From: Candidatus Eiseniibacteriota bacterium
GTDB lineage: Bacteria > Eisenbacteria > RBG-16-71-46 > CAZAMP01
Assembly (NCBI GenBank): GCA_965224245.1
Contig: OZ245046.1
Span: forward strand, 2,240,001 to 2,304,000
DNA: 64,000 bases
Direction: 5' to 3'
Part shown: positions 1 through 26,462 of the stretch, piece after piece
How the letters are laid out: every line of letters starts with the position of its first letter
Numbering within the stretch: the stretch's first letter is position 1
The notes under the pieces: model-generated
The model's database searches: none
Told to the model about the DNA's origin: nothing
Seen by the model: the letters and a program-made list of their open reading frames with translations, nothing else
Program-made: the position numbers and the translations under genes

Positions 1-230
1 CGACCGCGGACGCGGCGGTGATGCTGGGGGACTCGTGGGCGTCGGACGTCGTCGGCGCGTCGCGGGCCGGGATCGCGGCGGTGTGGCTGAACCGGTATCG
101 CGTCCCGTGTCCGGATCCGGCGATGGCGATCGAGGTGACGTCGTTGACTCCGACCGAGCGGGTGCTGGAGGCGCTCGAGGAGGCTCGGGTGGCGACGCGC
201 GCAGGTGCGTCGGGGCGGGGATCTCGTTGA
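1..230 (+). CDS. HAD-family hydrolase, C-terminal part (5' truncated by window edge)
   Basis: Motif IV 'AVMLGDSWASDVVGASRAGIAAVWLNR' typical of HAD-IA hydrolases. Confidence 0.8.
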   Translation, partial: TADAAVMLGDSWASDVVGASRAGIAAVWLNRYRVPCPDPAMAIEVTSLTPTERVLEALEEARVATRAGASGRGSR

Positions 231-330
231 GTCGACCGCCGCGGGGCTCGGTGCGTCGGAGGTCGCCGGGCCGCCGGCGAGGCCCGCCTTGACCCTCCGG
301 TGGCGCCGTGTTCTCTTCATCGGTCCAGAC

Positions 331-403
331 GGGCCCATAGCTCAGTGGTTAGAGCCGCCGGCTCATAACCGGTAGGTCCCAGGTTCGAGTCCTGGTGGGC
401 CCA
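331..403 (+). tRNA. tRNA-Ile2 (CAU anticodon, lysidine type); elongator tRNA-Met not excluded
   Basis: GGGCCCA-TAGCTCAGTGGTTAGAGC-CGCCGG-CTCATAA-CCGGT...GGTTCGAGTCC-TGGTGGGCCC-A cloverleaf; CAT at 364-366; G1-C72 paired so not an initiator; resembles ileX type; CCA not encoded. Confidence 0.9.
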
Positions 404-443
404 CATTCGAGGATCGGCGGAGCCTCGTGCCGGTTGTCGATGC

Positions 444-647
444 TCACCCCCGCGTTGCGCGCCACATCACCCTGCCCGACTCCCGTGCGTCGGTCAGTAC
501 GATACCGACGTCATGGCTGATCAGGATCCAATCCCTTTCCGCGACATCTGTCGGTCGATCGTCGACGGGCCCAGCGAGCAGGGCCATGCCGACAGCCCCG
601 GACATGAACAGCGCAAGCCCGATGAGGATGATGTGACGGAGACTCAA
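444..647 (-). CDS. Small putative membrane/secreted protein (about 67 aa), possibly a fragment
   Basis: TTG start preceded by GGGAG; hydrophobic N-terminus IILIGLALFMSGAVGMALLAG then DWILISHDVGIV; overlaps the low-complexity tail of ORF 511-1776. Confidence 0.3.
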   Translation of the reverse strand: MSLRHIILIGLALFMSGAVGMALLAGPVDDRPTDVAERDWILISHDVGIVLTDARESGRVMWRATRG

Positions 648-1776
648 GGGACTGCTCCCTGGTCGATTGCGGATGCCGGCGGATCGGCACTCGCGGTGGG
701 AGCTGCCCCACGAAGACGCGGGGTTCACGCACCATGTCGGCCGCGAAGACCTGTCCCTGAGGGCCGAGCGCAACGAGGTCGACCGTGGCTCGTTCGCCGC
801 CGAACATGAGGCGCCACATCCCGAGCACCTCGCCGCCCACGGAGAACTCGTAGAGCGCGGCCCCCGGTAGCAAGAGAAAGATGCTCCCGTCGAGGCACGC
901 GACGTCGAGCAGGTATGCTGCTCCGTGTGGATGACCGTCACCGTTGGACAACGCTTCCGTCTGCCGTTCGAGCTCGTCCAACGAGAGGGCCTCTCGCACG
1001 TCGTAGCCGGCCGACCTCAGGTGCCGCTCCTGAGCGCCAAGCCAGCACCGGTGCCATTCCCACACCTCGTCGACGAGCACCGGGAAGTCGCCACGGGACC
1101 TCCCGTCGAGCGAGTACAGGTGCACCTCCGGGACACTCATCTTCGCCACGACCAGAACGCTGTCCGAGCAGAACGAGAGCCGGATGCGATTCAGAGCATC
1201 AATCGCCGCGGGTGTCCCGGTCGCCCCACGCCGCAGCCCACCAAACGCATGTCTTGCGCCACTCGACGTCACGCGTGCGACCAGCCGGTCTTCACCGGGC
1301 TTCGCCCTGACCACGACACTTCGGTCGTTGCCCAGGCCAACCTCCCGTGGGGGATAGCCGAGCTCGAGCACCCGTATCGTTTCGTCGTGAGCTCCGAACA
1401 CCCGGATGCCCCCGTGTGCATACTCCGCGATCGCGAGCTCCTCGCGGTCGTTGATCGAGACATCCACCGGCAACGCGTCGCCATCCAGAAGCCACTCACG
1501 ACTCGTCGTCCCATCCCCGTCGTACCCGGCAACCCGACCCGCGTCCGTGTCCACCACGATGACGTGCCCCTCGGGCGTGGATGCCAGCGCACTGATCGAA
1601 TCGAAAGGTGGTGTCGGTTCCAGCTGGTACAGATCCAGCGTCTCCTCGGCGCTGCCACTCCTGAGGATCGTGGCGGCACCGAGAAGCAGTGCATACACGC
1701 CACATCTGGCCGCATGATGCCGTATCATGGCGATATCCTCCGGGCTTCGAAGAGACACCACCCCACGAAGGATCAC
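511..1776 (-). CDS. Secreted NHL/six-bladed beta-propeller protein
   Basis: Signal-like VYALLLGAATILRSGSA; repeated blade motifs (ALASTPEGHVIVVDTDAGRVAGYDGDG, PVDVSINDREELAIAE, VHLYSLDG, DLVALGPQGQVFAAD); last ~55 aa look like a read-through tail. Confidence 0.65.
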   Translation of the reverse strand: MILRGVVSLRSPEDIAMIRHHAARCGVYALLLGAATILRSGSAEETLDLYQLEPTPPFDSISALASTPEGHVIVVDTDAGRVAGYDGDGTTSREWLLDGDALPVDVSINDREELAIAEYAHGGIRVFGAHDETIRVLELGYPPREVGLGNDRSVVVRAKPGEDRLVARVTSSGARHAFGGLRRGATGTPAAIDALNRIRLSFCSDSVLVVAKMSVPEVHLYSLDGRSRGDFPVLVDEVWEWHRCWLGAQERHLRSAGYDVREALSLDELERQTEALSNGDGHPHGAAYLLDVACLDGSIFLLLPGAALYEFSVGGEVLGMWRLMFGGERATVDLVALGPQGQVFAADMVREPRVFVGQLPPRVPIRRHPQSTREQSLESPSHHPHRACAVHVRGCRHGPARWARRRSTDRCRGKGLDPDQP

Positions 1777-1780
1777 CGGG

Positions 1781-2932
1781 CTACTCCTGCTCCCGGCGTT
1801 CGAGAGCGAAGCACGACAGAGTAAGTGGCGGCCTCACTCCATCGTCCGACCTGTGGAACACATAGATCCGCTCACCCCGGACGAACACACGATCTCGTCC
1901 AAGCGCAACAGGAGCCCCCTCGAACCTCACGACGACCGAGCGGGTCCGATCCGCGCCCGACGCGACGGCGCGGAATCGAAGCTCCTGCACGTCGTCTGCA
2001 AGCGGAGCACCGGAACGAACCCAGATCATCCCGCCCGAACGCAGCAGAACCTCGCCGATTCGCCGGTGGTGATCCCGCGGCTCTGCCCTCCGCGTGTACG
2101 CCCCGGTTTTGATCTGGTAGGTCCGAACTCGGTCCTTTTCGTCACCAGAGCGGCGCACCAGGGGGAGATCGCATTCAGCATCTGCTGCGAGCGACTGGCC
2201 CAAATCGTAGTGACGCAAGGTGCAGTCATCATGTTCGCGGCTGACCACGACCTCGTCGCCAGCGGCATCCCAGACCAGGGCTCCGGTGAAGAACCGCTCG
2301 TCGATGACCTCCGGGCTCGAGGGAGAGAGATCGACCTGGGAGAGCACGTGACTCGAATCGCCGGAGAACGAGTACCAGAAGAGCATGTTGGCGGCGTACG
2401 GCTCGGTACTCATCAGCGAGCTTTGACCGACCTCGACCACGACCCCGTCGTCGACGGCTTCGACACGTACGGGCGGCTGCCCGGGTCCCCCGTGAACGCT
2501 CGGTATCGTGATGCTGTGCAGATACTGCCGGGTCAGGTCGTACAGATGAAGTCGCGATGGATAGTCCCCGATCCCGATGGTCGAGTCCCAGACACATATC
2601 GCGTAGACGTCCCCGTGCTCGCCGGGCCCCTCGCCTGACGACCCGAGCTGGCCGTGAAACCGGCCTCGATCGTCCAGCACAAACACGGCGCGCTGGCCGC
2701 TGTCCACCACGTATGTCGAGTCACCGCATGTGGCGACATCCACCACGTTGCCGAAGACCTGTTCATCGGTGTCGGCGCCGACGTTCCAGAGCTCCTGGGC
2801 GACGTATGCGTCCCGAGTATGGGCCTGCGCCCACGTGACCCCGAGAATCAGGAGCACGACCGCCATCGTCGATCGAGGCCTGGGCCACCGGAGTCGAGGA
2901 CACGAAGGTGATGCCGAGAACCTGGCTGACAC
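1781..2932 (-). CDS. Secreted six-bladed beta-propeller protein (TolB-like/DUF5128-type)
   Basis: Signal peptide MAVVLLILGVTWAQA; hallmark 'VFGNVVDVA..DSTYVVDSGQRAVFVLDDRGRFHGQLGSSGEGPGE'; SD GGAGG upstream. Confidence 0.75.
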   Translation of the reverse strand: MSARFSASPSCPRLRWPRPRSTMAVVLLILGVTWAQAHTRDAYVAQELWNVGADTDEQVFGNVVDVATCGDSTYVVDSGQRAVFVLDDRGRFHGQLGSSGEGPGEHGDVYAICVWDSTIGIGDYPSRLHLYDLTRQYLHSITIPSVHGGPGQPPVRVEAVDDGVVVEVGQSSLMSTEPYAANMLFWYSFSGDSSHVLSQVDLSPSSPEVIDERFFTGALVWDAAGDEVVVSREHDDCTLRHYDLGQSLAADAECDLPLVRRSGDEKDRVRTYQIKTGAYTRRAEPRDHHRRIGEVLLRSGGMIWVRSGAPLADDVQELRFRAVASGADRTRSVVVRFEGAPVALGRDRVFVRGERIYVFHRSDDGVRPPLTLSCFALERREQE

Positions 2933-2953
2933 GTCGTGGGCCTCCCTTCTCGA

Positions 2954-3220
2954 CTAGAAGAAGTACCCACCGCCTCCTCGGGCACACTGCGTGCACGTGC
3001 ATCTCGGTACGGGACTGCACTGGCAGGTGCACGCGCAGTCCCAGGGTGCCCAGCACGTAGTGGATGCGCTCTCGCCATCGGGGCAAATGACCGCGCAACT
3101 GAAGGACTCGCCGACCGGTGGTGTTACGGCCAGGGATCGATGTCCGGTCATGACGGACCCGAGGGCGATCGCGAGCACGAGGAGCGCGATCAACCTCGTG
3201 CCAGTTCGCTTCATTTGCAT
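2954..3220 (-). CDS. Small secreted cysteine-rich peptide (88 aa, 10 Cys)
   Basis: SD GGAGGT 7 nt before ATG at 3220; basic N-terminus, hydrophobic core LIALLVLAIALGSV, SLA cleavage; mature part CAVICPDGESASTTCWAPWDCACTCQCSPVPRCTCTQCARGGGGYFF. Confidence 0.75.
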   Translation of the reverse strand: MQMKRTGTRLIALLVLAIALGSVMTGHRSLAVTPPVGESFSCAVICPDGESASTTCWAPWDCACTCQCSPVPRCTCTQCARGGGGYFF

Positions 3221-3783
3221 CACGAATACCTCCGGACGATTGATGTCGCACTGCATTGCTGATCGCTGAATGCCGCGCGCATGAGCGCAGCGTTTCGCAT
3301 CGAGCGCGGCCCAGCGAAGCGAAACGAGGTGCTGAACGCGACGCATCGTGTCGCTCGTCGCTTCGATCGCCGGCCCCGCAGGCGAAGCCATACATGATCT
3401 GCATGTGGCGGGTCGGTGGGCGGCTTCTCCTCACCGGGCACGTCAGCAGGCGTGTGAGCTCACGAGCGGAGGGCGTAGCTCATGAGGCACGAAACTCGAT
3501 CGTGGGCAGGACGCGGTGACATCGAGCGAGCTGACAGCGTCATCGTTGGAGCTGTCACGAGCGTCGACTTGCATCGTACATGGTGACGAGCTGGAGTCAA
3601 TCGCATTCTCGAGACCGACACCGCCGCGTTTTCCCCTTGGCTCCCGCATGCTCCTTTGCACCCGGGTACACGCCCACACTCGACACAGGCTCACACCCAC
3701 GGGACGACCTGCGTGCAGCGCCTCGGAGCCACCCGTCGACATGCGACTCGTCACGCCACGCTCCGCCCGGTCATCGCCATCGC

Positions 3784-4323
3784 CTGGCTCACAAGCTCGA
3801 AACCATGATGTTACGTCGGCGAGACCGCTGGCACGGTCTCGGCGTCGAGGTCACCGAGGCCCCCACCTCGAGCTCGCGCTCGCGATGTCCCACTGCGACT
3901 GGACCGTCGAGATAGCGGATCCTCCGCACGATGACGACCGACGGCGCCGCGATCGCCATCCCCAACGCGCTCGTCCGCACTTCGGATGACCCCGTGCTCG
4001 ACGTGGTCAACACACGCGTGCCCGTTCAGAACGGGGAGGCCTTCGAGGTCCCCCGCGAGTACGTCGCGGCCGGCGACGCCACGATCGAGACGATGGGCTT
4101 GCTCGACGGGGCCGCTACGTCTGGGCGCTGGCCAAGCTCGGCGTGGGCGTCGAGTTGTCCGACACCGACCGTATCGAGAGCTACCTCCTGGTCGCGAGCC
4201 CCAACCGCCAGGGCAGGTCGCTCATCATGCCGACGTCGACCCGCGTCGTCTTGCAGCAACCCCCTGAGCGCGACGCTCGGTCCGAGCGGCAACCGGTTCC
4301 GCCACACGCGCACGAGCCAGCTC
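3784..4323 (+). pseudogene. DUF932/DUF945 phage/plasmid-like protein pseudogene (multiple frameshifts, 3' truncated)
   Basis: Conserved blocks spread over different frames: AHKLETMM..WHGLGVEVTEAPT / CDWTVE / ALVRTSDD.VLDVV..PVQNGEAF..GDATIETMGLLDG / DRIESYLLV..STRVV / FRHT. Confidence 0.7.
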
Positions 4324-4545
4324 ACCGAGGCGCTCGACAACCTCACGCCGGCCGACGTGTACGAGGGTCGGGTTCGTGAGATCCGTTCAGCCGGGGTACT
4401 CGTGAAGCGAGAGACCCTGCGGCGCAGAAGGCGCTACAATCTGGGCGTGTCGGTCACGAGAAAGGACGTCATCCGCCCGGCCGACGTGAGGGAAGTGTCC
4501 ATGGCGATGAGCCGTGAAGTGTCCCCGAGGCTCTGACGACGAACT
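4324..4545 (+). mobile_element. IS3-family insertion sequence remnant (transposase C-terminus plus right end)
   Basis: EALDNLTPADVYEGR..I....VKRETLRRRRRYN resembles the C-terminus of IS3-family transposases; followed by TGTCCC...TGACGACGAACT resembling the right terminal repeat. Confidence 0.6.
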
Positions 4546-4785
4546 CGGACGGCCCCGAGGGGTCCTTCCCGGGTCGTGATCTCAGGTCCGGCGGGGGGAG
4601 TTCCTGGCACGCGGCGTGAACGATCTTACGGCTGCCGCGTGCGGTCTCCCCACCCGGCGGTGTTCTCCACTCGACGGTGTCCGTGCGCCCAGCAGGGACG
4701 CCCCAGATCGATCCCGTGGCCGGCGCCTCTCCTCGAGCCCCGCGCCGCGCCGACAGCCCAAGCATCTCGACGGAGAGGGACGCCG

Positions 4786-7110
4786 ATGATCCACGCCGAT
4801 TACCCGGGTACACGCGCGTACGACCCGATCACCGCCCACGCCATCCACGACGACGGCATGCGCGGGAACGCCGCGAGCCCCGTCGGTCCGGGCGCGGCCC
4901 GTCATGCATGGTCGCTCCTCGCCATCCTCATCGTCACCGCGGCCCTTCTCCCCTCGGCCGCCTCCGCCCAGGTCGAGACCACCTTCGACACCGACCTCGA
5001 AGGCTGGGCCGTCTACGGCGACAACGTCTTCTACTGGGTCGCCGGCGAGGGCAACCCCGGCGGCTGCCTCCGCGTGGACGACGACGCCATCGGCCTCTAC
5101 AGCGTGGCCACGGCCCCGCCCGCCTACCTCGGAGACTGGTCCACGCTGAGTCCCGCCGACTCCCTCGCCTACGACGCGATCTACGAGGCCGCGAGCAGCA
5201 CCACGCCCTCCCCACCCGCCATCTTCCGGATCGAGGGCCCCGGCGGCGCCGCGTCGTACACCACGACCAGCTTCGGGCGTGACGTCTGGAATCACTTCTC
5301 GATCCCGATCGATCCCGCCGCGTGGACGATGGAGACCGGCACCTGGGCGTCGCTGATCACCGACGTGACCGCGTGCGAGCTCGCGGCCGAGATGATCTTC
5401 GGAGACGAGGTCGTGCGTCTCGACAACGTGCGGCTCGGGGGCACGCCGGGCGTCCCGGCCCAGCTCGCCGAGGTGGAGGACTTCGAGGACGGCATCATCG
5501 GCTGGACCGAGATCGGCACGACCATCTCGCCGGACCCCATGGACGGGAGCCCCGGCGCGTGCATCGTCGTCGACGAGCAGCGGAACGGCGGCGCGGTCGT
5601 CCTGCCCTCCTGGTTCGGCGGACCCTGGGATGCGTACGTGGACGACGGCGTGATCTCGTTCTCCTGGTTTCCGCCCGACCCCATCCACCCGGGAGGTGAG
5701 ATCCGGCTCGAGGTGCTGGGCCCCGGCGGCACCGCCCGGCATACGATCTCGACCGACCCGTACGTCGGCGCGAATCACCTCTGGCACCCGATCGTGATCC
5801 CGATCACCGAGTCGGCCTTCGACGTGACCGCCGGGACGTGGGAGGGCGTGGTGGCGCACGTGCAGAAGGTCCGGATCTCCTGCGACGTCACCGCCGGCAA
5901 CGACACATTCCGCCTCGACACCGTCTATCGCGGCGGGGCGGCCGGCGCGCCGGCCACCGAGCTGCCCATCGTCATCCAGGAGCCCGACGACTACGCGCTC
6001 TGTGACTACTGGACGTTCCGGAACGCGTCCGCCCTCGCGCGGAACCCCGCAGACGGCGTCCTCTACACGCTCGTGAACGAGCCTCCGGCCGACGGCGGTG
6101 GGGTGTACGCCGTGAACGGTCCCGCCGCCGGGTTCCGGCTGCACGCGTACGATCGGCCCGCCGGGCTCGTGTTCACCGACGACGGCGACGGCTTCGTCAG
6201 CGAGAACTACGCCGGACGCGTGTTCCGGTTCGTCGGCGCCGATTCGTCGATGACGTGGATCTCGTCCTTTCTGTCGGGCGACGACGATCCGGCCGGGCTC
6301 ACGATCGCCCCGACCGGGTTCGACGGCGGCGCGGTCTCGGCCGGCGATCTGATCGTGGTCGATCACGGGAACGGCGGCACCGACGCGTTCTGGGCCGCGT
6401 CCCCGGACGTTCCCGATCAGGCGCAGCAGCTCGTGGCCGATCCGGGCGCCGCGGACTGGTACGACGTGACCACCGACGGCGCGTCGCTGTGGGCCTGCGA
6501 TTCGTACAACGACGGCGTGCTCACGATCGCGGCGCCCGACGGCTCCACGACGTCGCTCGTCCTGTCCCAGACGCTGAGCGATCCGCGGGCCATCGCCTAC
6601 GACACCGGCGAGGACGTCCTCTACCTGACCACGAACTCCCCGCCGATCGGCCTCTACCGCGTGGATCCGGTGACCGGCGACGTCACGCTGGTGGCGAACG
6701 GCTTCGGTGCGTCCGGATACGGTAACCTCGAGATCGATCCCGTGGGACGTCGGCTCTGGGTCACCGATTCCGACAACAGCCGCGTGTACGAGATCTGCCT
6801 GCCCGCGGCGGCGGCGGTTCCCGACGCGGCGCGTCCGGGCTTCGGGCTCGCGATCGGTCCGTCACCGGTGAGGGCGTCCACCGTGGTCAAGCTGGAGCTC
6901 GATACACGGTCCGTCGTGCGGCTGCACGTGTTCGACGCATCCGGGCGGCGTGTGCGCCGCCTCGCCGACGGTGTCCGTGACGCGGGCACGCTGCGCATCG
7001 CCTGGGATGCACGCGACGATCGCGGGCACCGCGTCGAGCCGGGGATCTTCTTCGTGCGAGCGGAGTCGGACGGCGCGACCCGATCGGCCAAGCTCACCGT
7101 ACTCCGGTAG
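4786..7110 (+). CDS. Secreted multidomain protein: two laminin-B-like domains, beta-propeller, C-terminal FlgD Ig-like domain
   Basis: SD GGAGAGG before ATG 4786; signal LLAILIVTAALLPSAASA; two repeats F-x-x-x-x-x-GW...G[NS]PG[GA]C; propeller repeats; tail 'PSPVRASTVV...VFDASGRRVRRLADG...WDARDDRGHRVEPGIFFVR'. Confidence 0.75.
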   Translation: MIHADYPGTRAYDPITAHAIHDDGMRGNAASPVGPGAARHAWSLLAILIVTAALLPSAASAQVETTFDTDLEGWAVYGDNVFYWVAGEGNPGGCLRVDDDAIGLYSVATAPPAYLGDWSTLSPADSLAYDAIYEAASSTTPSPPAIFRIEGPGGAASYTTTSFGRDVWNHFSIPIDPAAWTMETGTWASLITDVTACELAAEMIFGDEVVRLDNVRLGGTPGVPAQLAEVEDFEDGIIGWTEIGTTISPDPMDGSPGACIVVDEQRNGGAVVLPSWFGGPWDAYVDDGVISFSWFPPDPIHPGGEIRLEVLGPGGTARHTISTDPYVGANHLWHPIVIPITESAFDVTAGTWEGVVAHVQKVRISCDVTAGNDTFRLDTVYRGGAAGAPATELPIVIQEPDDYALCDYWTFRNASALARNPADGVLYTLVNEPPADGGGVYAVNGPAAGFRLHAYDRPAGLVFTDDGDGFVSENYAGRVFRFVGADSSMTWISSFLSGDDDPAGLTIAPTGFDGGAVSAGDLIVVDHGNGGTDAFWAASPDVPDQAQQLVADPGAADWYDVTTDGASLWACDSYNDGVLTIAAPDGSTTSLVLSQTLSDPRAIAYDTGEDVLYLTTNSPPIGLYRVDPVTGDVTLVANGFGASGYGNLEIDPVGRRLWVTDSDNSRVYEICLPAAAAVPDAARPGFGLAIGPSPVRASTVVKLELDTRSVVRLHVFDASGRRVRRLADGVRDAGTLRIAWDARDDRGHRVEPGIFFVRAESDGATRSAKLTVLR

Positions 7111-7253
7111 ATCCCGACGATCCGAGCGATCGCGAGCGGAGATGACGAATGGTGCGTTCGATCGCACCATTCGTCTTGTGCCCGGCGATCGATTGACCGT
7201 ATGGTTGCCCGTCGACTCGCCCGCGCCAGCCAGTTCCAGGACGGGAGCGCCAC

Positions 7254-8039
7254 ATGACGCCGCGACCCGCGGTATCCGTCGATCATCTGGCAGCCTTCGC
7301 GGTCGCCGCGCTCGCAGGGGCCGCCGGGCTGTGGATCCTGCGTCGCCGCGCGGTGGCGATTCCCACGAGCATCGTGATCCTGACCGCCGGCATCGGGCTC
7401 GCCGGCCTCGGCGTGGTGGCCTTCGCCCGGCCGATCGTGCGCATGACGCTGGCGCCGCCCGAGGCGCGCGCGTTTCCCCTCCCCGCGATCATGCGGGCGG
7501 CCTGGTTCTGCCTGGGGCTCGGCACGGGCGTGGTGGCCACGTGGGCGCTGGGGTCGGGCAAGACGCGACGAACCGACCGCGTCTTCGTGTGCTACCGGCG
7601 AGCCGACAGCGCCGACGCCGTCGGGCGGGTCGTCGATCGACTCGCCGCTCGCTTCGGCGTCGATCGCGTCGTCCGGGACGTCCACAGCGTCGGGGGTGGC
7701 GGCAACGTGCGCGAGCTGATCCGGCGGTACCTCGCGGAGTCGAGCGCGTTGATCGCCGTCATCGGTCCCCGCTGGCTCGATGCCGCCGGTGAGGACGGAT
7801 CACGTCGTCTGGACGATCCGTCGGACTTCGTGACGCTCGAGATCGAGACCGCGCTGGCCTTCGGCCTCCACGTGATCCCGGTCCTCGTGGGAGGCGCCCG
7901 CTTGCCCCCTCGCGACGCGCTGCCCCCACGCATCGCCGCGCTCGCCGACCGCAACGCGATGTCGGTTCGGCCCGATCCCGACTTCGAGACCGACGTCCTG
8001 CGCCTGATCGAGACCATCGAGCGCGCCGGCACGGCATAG
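7254..8039 (+). CDS. Membrane-anchored TIR-domain protein (3 predicted TM helices plus TIR_2)
   Basis: Three hydrophobic segments then 'VFVCYRRADS...LIAVIGPRWL...RRLDDPSDFVTLEIETAL...VIPVLV' TIR signature. Confidence 0.85.
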   Translation: MTPRPAVSVDHLAAFAVAALAGAAGLWILRRRAVAIPTSIVILTAGIGLAGLGVVAFARPIVRMTLAPPEARAFPLPAIMRAAWFCLGLGTGVVATWALGSGKTRRTDRVFVCYRRADSADAVGRVVDRLAARFGVDRVVRDVHSVGGGGNVRELIRRYLAESSALIAVIGPRWLDAAGEDGSRRLDDPSDFVTLEIETALAFGLHVIPVLVGGARLPPRDALPPRIAALADRNAMSVRPDPDFETDVLRLIETIERAGTA

Positions 8040-26364: not shown

Positions 26365-26462
26365 TGGCGGGAACGTGTGGGAATCGAACCCACCTCGGAC
26401 GGGATTAGCGCCCGACAGAAGGATTTGAAGTCCTCGGAGTTCACCAGAACTCGCCCGCTCCC
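26365..26462 (-). tRNA. selC: tRNA-Sec (UCA)
   Basis: 6-bp D-stem GAGTTC/GAACTC with 4-nt loop, anticodon loop CTTCAAA, long variable arm TCGGGCG/CGTCCGA, T-arm GTGGG-TTCGATT-CCCAC, G73 discriminator, CCA. Confidence 0.93.

Follow-up and report, generated by a model that had tools for sequence, protein, structure and literature searches.

In Bacteroidota, small proteins of the NVEALA family (PF14055) are found beside beta-propellers of the TolB-like or DUF5128 type. Further points of comparison for a small exported protein paired with a propeller are the mau cluster (MauA, MauB, MauD and MauE) of methylamine dehydrogenase (MADH), in which MauD and MauE, the latter a DsbB-like disulfide-forming protein, are needed for the six disulfides of the enzyme (accessible part of bioRxiv 10.64898/2026.03.05.709764); peptidyl-alpha-hydroxyglycine alpha-amidating lyase (PAL, PDB 3fvz), an NHL propeller acting on peptides; and AztD, a periplasmic zinc-binding protein (accessible part of PMC6689063). 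Our literature search, which mostly did not extend to subscription papers, found no description of a system like the one reported here; one paper that it returned (PMC12426817) uses "NHL", in its accessible part, for NHLP leader peptides and is irrelevant. In this study, we analysed a stretch of 64,000 nucleotides (nt), hereafter the window, from a Candidatus Eiseniibacteriota bacterium with a genome of 6.9 Mb (assembly GCA_965224245.1, contig OZ245046.1, positions 2,240,001 to 2,304,000; G000:C1:2240001-2304000 in our numbering), near the start of which an operon encodes an exported mini-protein with 10 Cys, P0001, and two exported beta-propellers, A and B. The peptide and propeller B recur together as a conserved pair, and we conclude that they are a real, rare and conserved module of an uncharacterised kind, with a peptide family that is new and a natural fusion. 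The elements of the operon are as follows.

Positions 3228 to 3233, reverse strand: Shine-Dalgarno sequence GGAGGT, 7 nt upstream of the peptide ATG.
Positions 2954 to 3220, reverse strand: exported mini-protein P0001, 88 aa with a mature part of about 57 aa and a 10-Cys CxC ladder, recognised by family profile and Cys spacing.
Positions 1781 to 2932, reverse strand: propeller A, a predicted exported NHL-like beta-propeller of family DUF5128 (PF17170; Pfam, AlphaFold model), apparently accessory and non-orthologous across loci.
Positions 511 to 1728, reverse strand: propeller B, a predicted exported NHL-type propeller and putative specific partner of the peptide family (Pfam NHL, leave-out profile), with a conserved part that ends near 690.
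Positions 511 to 690, reverse strand: non-conserved tail of propeller B, about 60 aa, with a codon score of -0.6 to -0.7 per codon; relatives end earlier.

The locus resembles the NVEALA neighbourhoods in that a small exported Cys-containing protein adjoins six-bladed propeller genes, and the first-pass annotation had drawn that parallel. The kinship does not hold up at the level of the peptide, which lacks the NVEALA motif and has no Pfam match to PF14055, either in P0001 (E up to 1) or in four relatives (E up to 0.1-0.5); the module further differs in its 10-12-Cys CxC ladder, in propellers without a lipobox, in the involvement of two propeller families and in the existence of a fusion. With respect to known propellers, A is a member of PF17170 whose model matches structures of this kind (PDB 4raa and 3s9j), and B matches the NHL repeat (PF01436) and is homologous to A; B nevertheless differs in C-terminal features specific to its family and in having a peptide of its own, and the A-family genes of the phylum are mostly without a Cys peptide. 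A classical cluster for a ribosomally synthesized, post-translationally modified peptide (RiPP) or bacteriocin is not evident either, as a linked modifying enzyme or peptidase-transporter is absent from the scanned open reading frames (ORFs) of the window; the earlier statement that the cluster holds no RiPP enzyme or transporter is borne out for the ORFs of positions 1-8000 (ORF list, with Pfam run on 7 of them).

The peptide gene itself is as first described, with its Shine-Dalgarno sequence, a hydrophobic N-terminus, 10 Cys spaced 3-9-5-1-1-1-5-1-2, the C-terminus GGGGYFF and a gap of 21 nt to the gene of propeller A. Signal peptides were called by eye and with a hydrophobicity filter, instead of SignalP, and neither a lipobox nor a Tat motif was found in the operon proteins. 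The ladder motif C-x5-CxCxCxC-x5/6-CxC, which was written with P0001 in view, has P0001 as its sole match in the genome's 101,096 stop-to-stop ORFs. Free peptides at six loci have 10, 10, 12, 10, 10 and 11 Cys, an even number in five of the six; by inspection, the window peptide lacks the first Cys of the family and has an extra one near its C-terminus, so that its Cys number stays even. The case for homology within the family rests on this spacing, and in leave-one-out profile tests (2000 composition-preserving shuffles each, HMMER composition correction off) the score of the member left out was reached by none of the shuffles for P0001 and for four relatives, and by one in 2000 for the free peptide of genome G064. 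By these comparisons, the peptide is a member of an undescribed CxC-ladder family, and the Cys pattern predicted to be conserved is indeed kept across the relatives. Searches of Pfam, NCBIfam and PDB sequences gave no match to the family, a protein database search with the peptide gave no relative among 35 candidates, and matches in a protein atlas (scores of 0.81-0.83) are a lead only. On viral contigs, a loose Cys pattern at the DNA level found at least 124 stretches; a tighter one found 7, and none of these 7 matched the A, B or peptide profile. A search of viral contigs with the peptide alignment likewise confirmed nothing.

What ties the peptide to propeller B is their recurrence. A ladder peptide accompanies full-length B at six of six loci, and under one and the same filter any such ORF accompanies none of 26 other NHL loci, although these control loci are shorter (mean 3.0 versus 6.6 kb). 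The linkage was found from both sides, with three loci reached from B and two from the peptide. Searched alone against 206 genomes of the phylum, B gave three non-self matches, of which those in G085 and G020 align over most of its length; both operons have the order B, peptide, second propeller, and their peptides share C-x5-CxCTCxC-x5/6-CxC. From the peptide side, 94 pattern matches in metagenomes were reduced to five loci, of which L368 and L369 carry genuine secreted peptides, each with a B gene and a second propeller, and a profile of five B sequences then added G064. Left out of the six-locus count were L370, a near copy of L369; L371 and L372, whose ORFs lack a signal peptide; and L183, where a partial B match falls in an unrelated propeller that lacks a peptide. 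Within the phylum, full-length B and the peptide occur in the same four of 206 genomes, all of which contributed to the profiles, so that the count means only that neither was encountered without the other. The conserved unit is, on this evidence, the peptide plus propeller B, with the second propeller as an accessory, and the proposal of an uncharacterised peptide-plus-propeller system thus gains support from the recurrence of a conserved pair. Chance neighbours in a decaying island, as a read-through tail on B, a nearby insertion sequence (IS) remnant and atypical codon use might suggest, are scarcely credible as an explanation: five other loci have the same pair, in varying gene order (three orders among the five co-oriented trios), which refutes chance for the family.

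The likely start of the propeller B gene is ATG 1728, preceded by a GGAGG Shine-Dalgarno sequence that GTG 1776 lacks (the database protein has 405 aa); the gap to the A gene is then 52 nt instead of the 4 nt first given. Its C-terminal tail, which scores as non-coding, probably arose when a stop codon was lost and translation ran on. Over 375-4428 the window is identical to contigs that come from the same study, which are not independent and possibly derive from the source sample, so that an assembly slip is excluded for the tail. Over the family as a whole, the window B keeps a fraction of 0.50 of the consensus residues, as against 0.46-0.65 in other members. It scores 23 bits against PF01436 (cut-off 20; relatives 28-43 bits), and a single-sequence model reached a predicted local distance difference test (pLDDT) value of only 34; its propeller fold is suggested by the Pfam match, an atlas match that pointed to NHL clusters of Acidobacteriota and an hhalign probability of 99.2% over 181 columns to the A family. 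Of the two six-bladed propellers first described, A has a model that matches six-bladed NHL domains, and B is a putative propeller whose complete six-bladed fold is conjectural. Homology within the B family is firm: a profile built without the window copy returned the window B as its best match in the genome (E 7e-23); members share 18-29% identity. A protein database search with B returned only B itself among 8000 scored, and tblastn against plasmids gave partial NHL matches only. Seven B proteins have no invariant polar residue in common, and because of this we favour binding over catalysis, though B may have a metal site; two His columns are kept in five of six other B proteins and lost in the window copy.

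The locus in G064 (L398:4891-13645; G064:C1) is the most elaborate, with a free 11-Cys peptide directly before a first B gene, two ABC-2 permeases, a NEW3-domain protein, an ABC ATPase and a second B; at its C-terminus, this second B continues via a short linker that lacks a signal peptide into a CxC domain with 7 Cys. One of 2000 shuffles reached the score of this fused tail in the leave-one-out profile test. At least six Cys within the final 45 aa occur in none of 143 A-type propellers and in 5 of 3293 long ORFs of the window genome, and a ladder within the last 60 aa in none of those 3293.

Strict linkage and a fusion would fit an enzyme and its substrate equally well, and B (or A) could accordingly be a maturation enzyme or folding factor for a secreted, RiPP-like peptide product, with PAL as precedent. 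The profile match of B to PAL 3fvz (E 7e-4) is weak and limited to generic NHL blades (profile positions 45-135). As seen above, a His pair is present in most B relatives, although the window B is without both residues and, unlike in PAL, no metal ligand is invariant in B; nor does any free peptide have a C-terminal Gly. The permeases and ATPase of G064 would suit this reading, although transporter genes were seen at only one locus of the six. At L368, an ORF with a CxxC motif (L368:755-1795, 346 aa) directly precedes B; it has no Pfam match and no clear relative in the window genome. Taken together, we regard a maturase as rather unlikely.

The explanation that we favour, with modest confidence, is that the peptide, locked by disulfides, is a small partner without catalytic activity that docks on propeller B outside the cytoplasm, the two probably working as a pair. 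The operon would then constitute an exported two-component unit of peptide and B plus an accessory, A. Once exported by Sec, the peptide would form five disulfides from its 10 Cys, probably through a MauE-type pathway whose genes lie elsewhere in the genome, and would become a small, rigid beta-ladder domain able to bind the propeller of its cognate B. Such a pair would most likely function in binding or recognition, as a module that evolves fast and is located in the periplasm or on the cell surface; propeller A would be a distant paralogue from a large family, serving as an exchangeable extra binding partner, and the cassette would move horizontally. We infer export, the five disulfides and docking on B from the linkage, the fusion, the mostly even Cys numbers, the presence of MauE and the lack of an invariant polar residue in B. 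MauE is encoded in all four carrier genomes, that of the window included, and is unlinked, lying far from the trio or on other contigs; VKOR was not found in the window genome.

Dense CxC motifs of a metallothionein-like kind could also mark the peptide as a periplasmic metal chelator, loaded or unloaded by the propellers, for which AztD offers a precedent and the His pair of most B proteins a conceivable site. Sec-type export into an oxidising compartment, the mostly even Cys counts and the MauE genes speak for disulfides instead, no metal-resistance or metal-regulator gene was recognised beside the inspected loci, and we hold this function to be improbable. The same anatomy is found in the mau system, which combines a small disulfide-rich exported protein with a large propeller and depends on MauE, and the window peptide has two Trp, as a quinone-cofactor enzyme resembling MADH might. 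Trp counts of 2, 1, 0, 0 and 0 in five family members show that the two conserved Trp of a small subunit with tryptophan tryptophylquinone are lacking, Pfam gave no match to MauA or MauB, and no gene for MauD, MauE or a haem peroxidase was recognised at the inspected loci (linked mauD, mauE and mauG are likewise unrecognised among the window ORFs, MauE being remote). With an NHL-type propeller and a far shorter small protein besides, an enzyme of this type is very improbable.

Several observations weigh against a docking pair of peptide and B. The linkage rests on six loci only, and the MauE count covers carrier genomes alone. The free G064 peptide has an odd number of Cys, and P0001 was missing from the seven best genome matches (E up to 1.3) of a profile made from the four other peptides. 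The fused tail has 7 Cys with a spacing unlike that of the free peptides, and its hhalign comparison to them is not significant (probability 3%, E 0.014). Moreover, the read-through tail of B may indicate that the window copy is decaying, and the His pair of the B relatives may belong to a metal-binding or catalytic site.

The role of propeller A was examined separately. It matches PF17170 with E 1.2e-10 and 41.5 bits (gathering cut-off 22.9) over residues 55-144 only, and its AlphaFold model, built from a 54-sequence alignment, has a pLDDT of 91.3 and six-bladed NHL domains as its closest structures. The best Foldseek match is the NHL domain of Brat (E 1.7e-10) and the best VIA match that of Mei-P26 (Z 20.8, root-mean-square deviation 3.7 over 262 residues); the model also resembles PDB 4raa (BF0058) and 3s9j (DUF4221). 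A protein database search gave one relative, and a profile of A relatives matched 190 times in all, in 40 of 151 genomes of the class. Among the matches listed (150 of 190), we sampled 130 loci (30 + 100), of which 9 have a small ORF passing a loose filter (signal plus 6 Cys), about three of them credible by eye (L153, L166 and L168), and none a ladder peptide. The A family is thus not tied to the ladder peptide, and the expected excess of Cys-rich ORFs upstream of homologues of 1781-2932 is for the most part not borne out; the same test succeeds for propeller B.

At five of the six peptide loci the second propeller is co-oriented with the peptide, and in G064 it is divergent. The five co-oriented proteins share 12-27% identity and are scattered in the tree, with two making up a shorter subtype. 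A clade of peptide-linked A genes in a first tree (support 0.87) was broken up by a second alignment with other sampling and was probably due to long-branch attraction. The second propeller is, on this comparison, an accessory, either acquired repeatedly or so diverged that its kinship is no longer recognisable.

Some divergent A genes are directly preceded by a peptide of a second type, with 6-7 Cys. In the window genome, secreted 6-Cys peptides stand before divergent DUF5128 genes at G000:C1:4949788-4950039 on the reverse strand (L009:5789-6040) and at G000:C1:5534930-5535166 on the forward strand (L010:3931-4167), and a similar pair of 6-7-Cys peptide and A gene was seen in G067, G091 and G103, three genomes of one genus. 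The gene after a fourth 6-Cys mini-protein, also secreted (G000:C1:3927485-3927766, reverse strand; L383:5486-5767), encodes an AhpC/TSA redoxin, and no propeller follows. At L153:2408-2620 and L163:2531-2743, secreted proteins of 70 aa, whose 5-6 Cys are arranged in CxxC pairs, lie 750-850 nt upstream of A-type propellers. By inspection, a small secreted protein with an acidic motif resembling G-x-I-D-(D/E)-x-P comes after the A-type gene at L065, L151, L154, L163, L145, L146, L164 and others, often followed by a large helical-repeat protein, possibly a separate peptide-signal module.

The surroundings of the cassette are atypical for the genome. The features concerned are these.

Positions 331 to 404, forward strand: tRNA of anticodon CAT in convergent orientation to the operon, with no repeat of its 3' end nearby.
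Positions 444 to 647, reverse strand: candidate fourth small ORF of 67 aa in a different frame from the B tail, which it overlaps; it begins with TTG, has an SD-like sequence and is hydrophobic at its N-terminus.
Positions 4311 to 4544, forward strand: IS remnant, the C-terminal end of an rve_3 integrase-core transposase, about 89% identical to several other copies in the genome.

The cassette is flanked by the convergent tRNA(CAT) on one side and the IS remnant on the other, its GC content is 0.62-0.67 as against 0.69 for the contig, and its third-position GC is 0.73-0.75 as against a median of 0.88; GC is below that of the flanks at L369, L182 and L368 as well as at the window locus. A second copy of the last 12-25 nt of the tRNA is absent within 150 kb. 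The first-pass annotation of a tRNA-adjacent island is therefore only partly upheld, in composition, tRNA and IS remnant; the duplicated tRNA 3' end and the integrase of a tRNA-integrated island were not found, the IS remnant apart. For the 444-647 ORF, which may be a truncated fourth gene, Pfam gives no family above its cut-off. A sigma-70-like site at 3600-3573 is not significant (1 seen, 0.4 expected). Also in the window are an exported FlgD-Ig propeller protein adjoining the cassette (4576-7110, forward strand), a membrane-anchored TIR_2 protein near it (7254-8039, forward strand), whose match to Thoeris ThcB4 is weak and far below cut-off, and a tRNA-Sec according to ARAGORN (26365-26462, reverse strand).

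Patchy occurrence, low-GC insertion beside IS or nuclease genes, fast divergence of B and an exporter at one locus would all suit a released antagonistic or signalling peptide, with the propellers as immunity proteins or receptors. The propeller-fused form would, however, need a cut for release, and by inspection the propellers lack a lipobox or second membrane anchor. The mature part of P0001 has 4 acidic and 2 basic residues, in contrast to membrane-active peptides of the cationic kind. The toxin reading of the earlier annotation is weakened because of the fusion and this non-cationic character, and we consider a released peptide unlikely.

Returning to the docking pair, it may belong to a general, undescribed class of cognate recognition pairs of disulfide mini-protein and propeller in little-studied phyla, an idea that we offer tentatively and regard as doubtful. 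Each Cys scaffold (the 10-Cys ladder, or the 6-7-Cys type) would have its own propeller, and these mobile, sometimes fused cassettes would form a diversifying periplasmic system of signalling, self-recognition or conflict without a characterised precedent. Exported propellers of the DUF5128 and NHL types are numerous, and the literature that we searched describes no function for them. The locus adds to them a bacterial cysteine-ladder mini-protein scaffold without a match in Pfam, NCBIfam or PDB sequences, and with a defined cognate pair, five natural orthologous pairs and a natural fusion, it makes the question of what such propellers bind directly testable.

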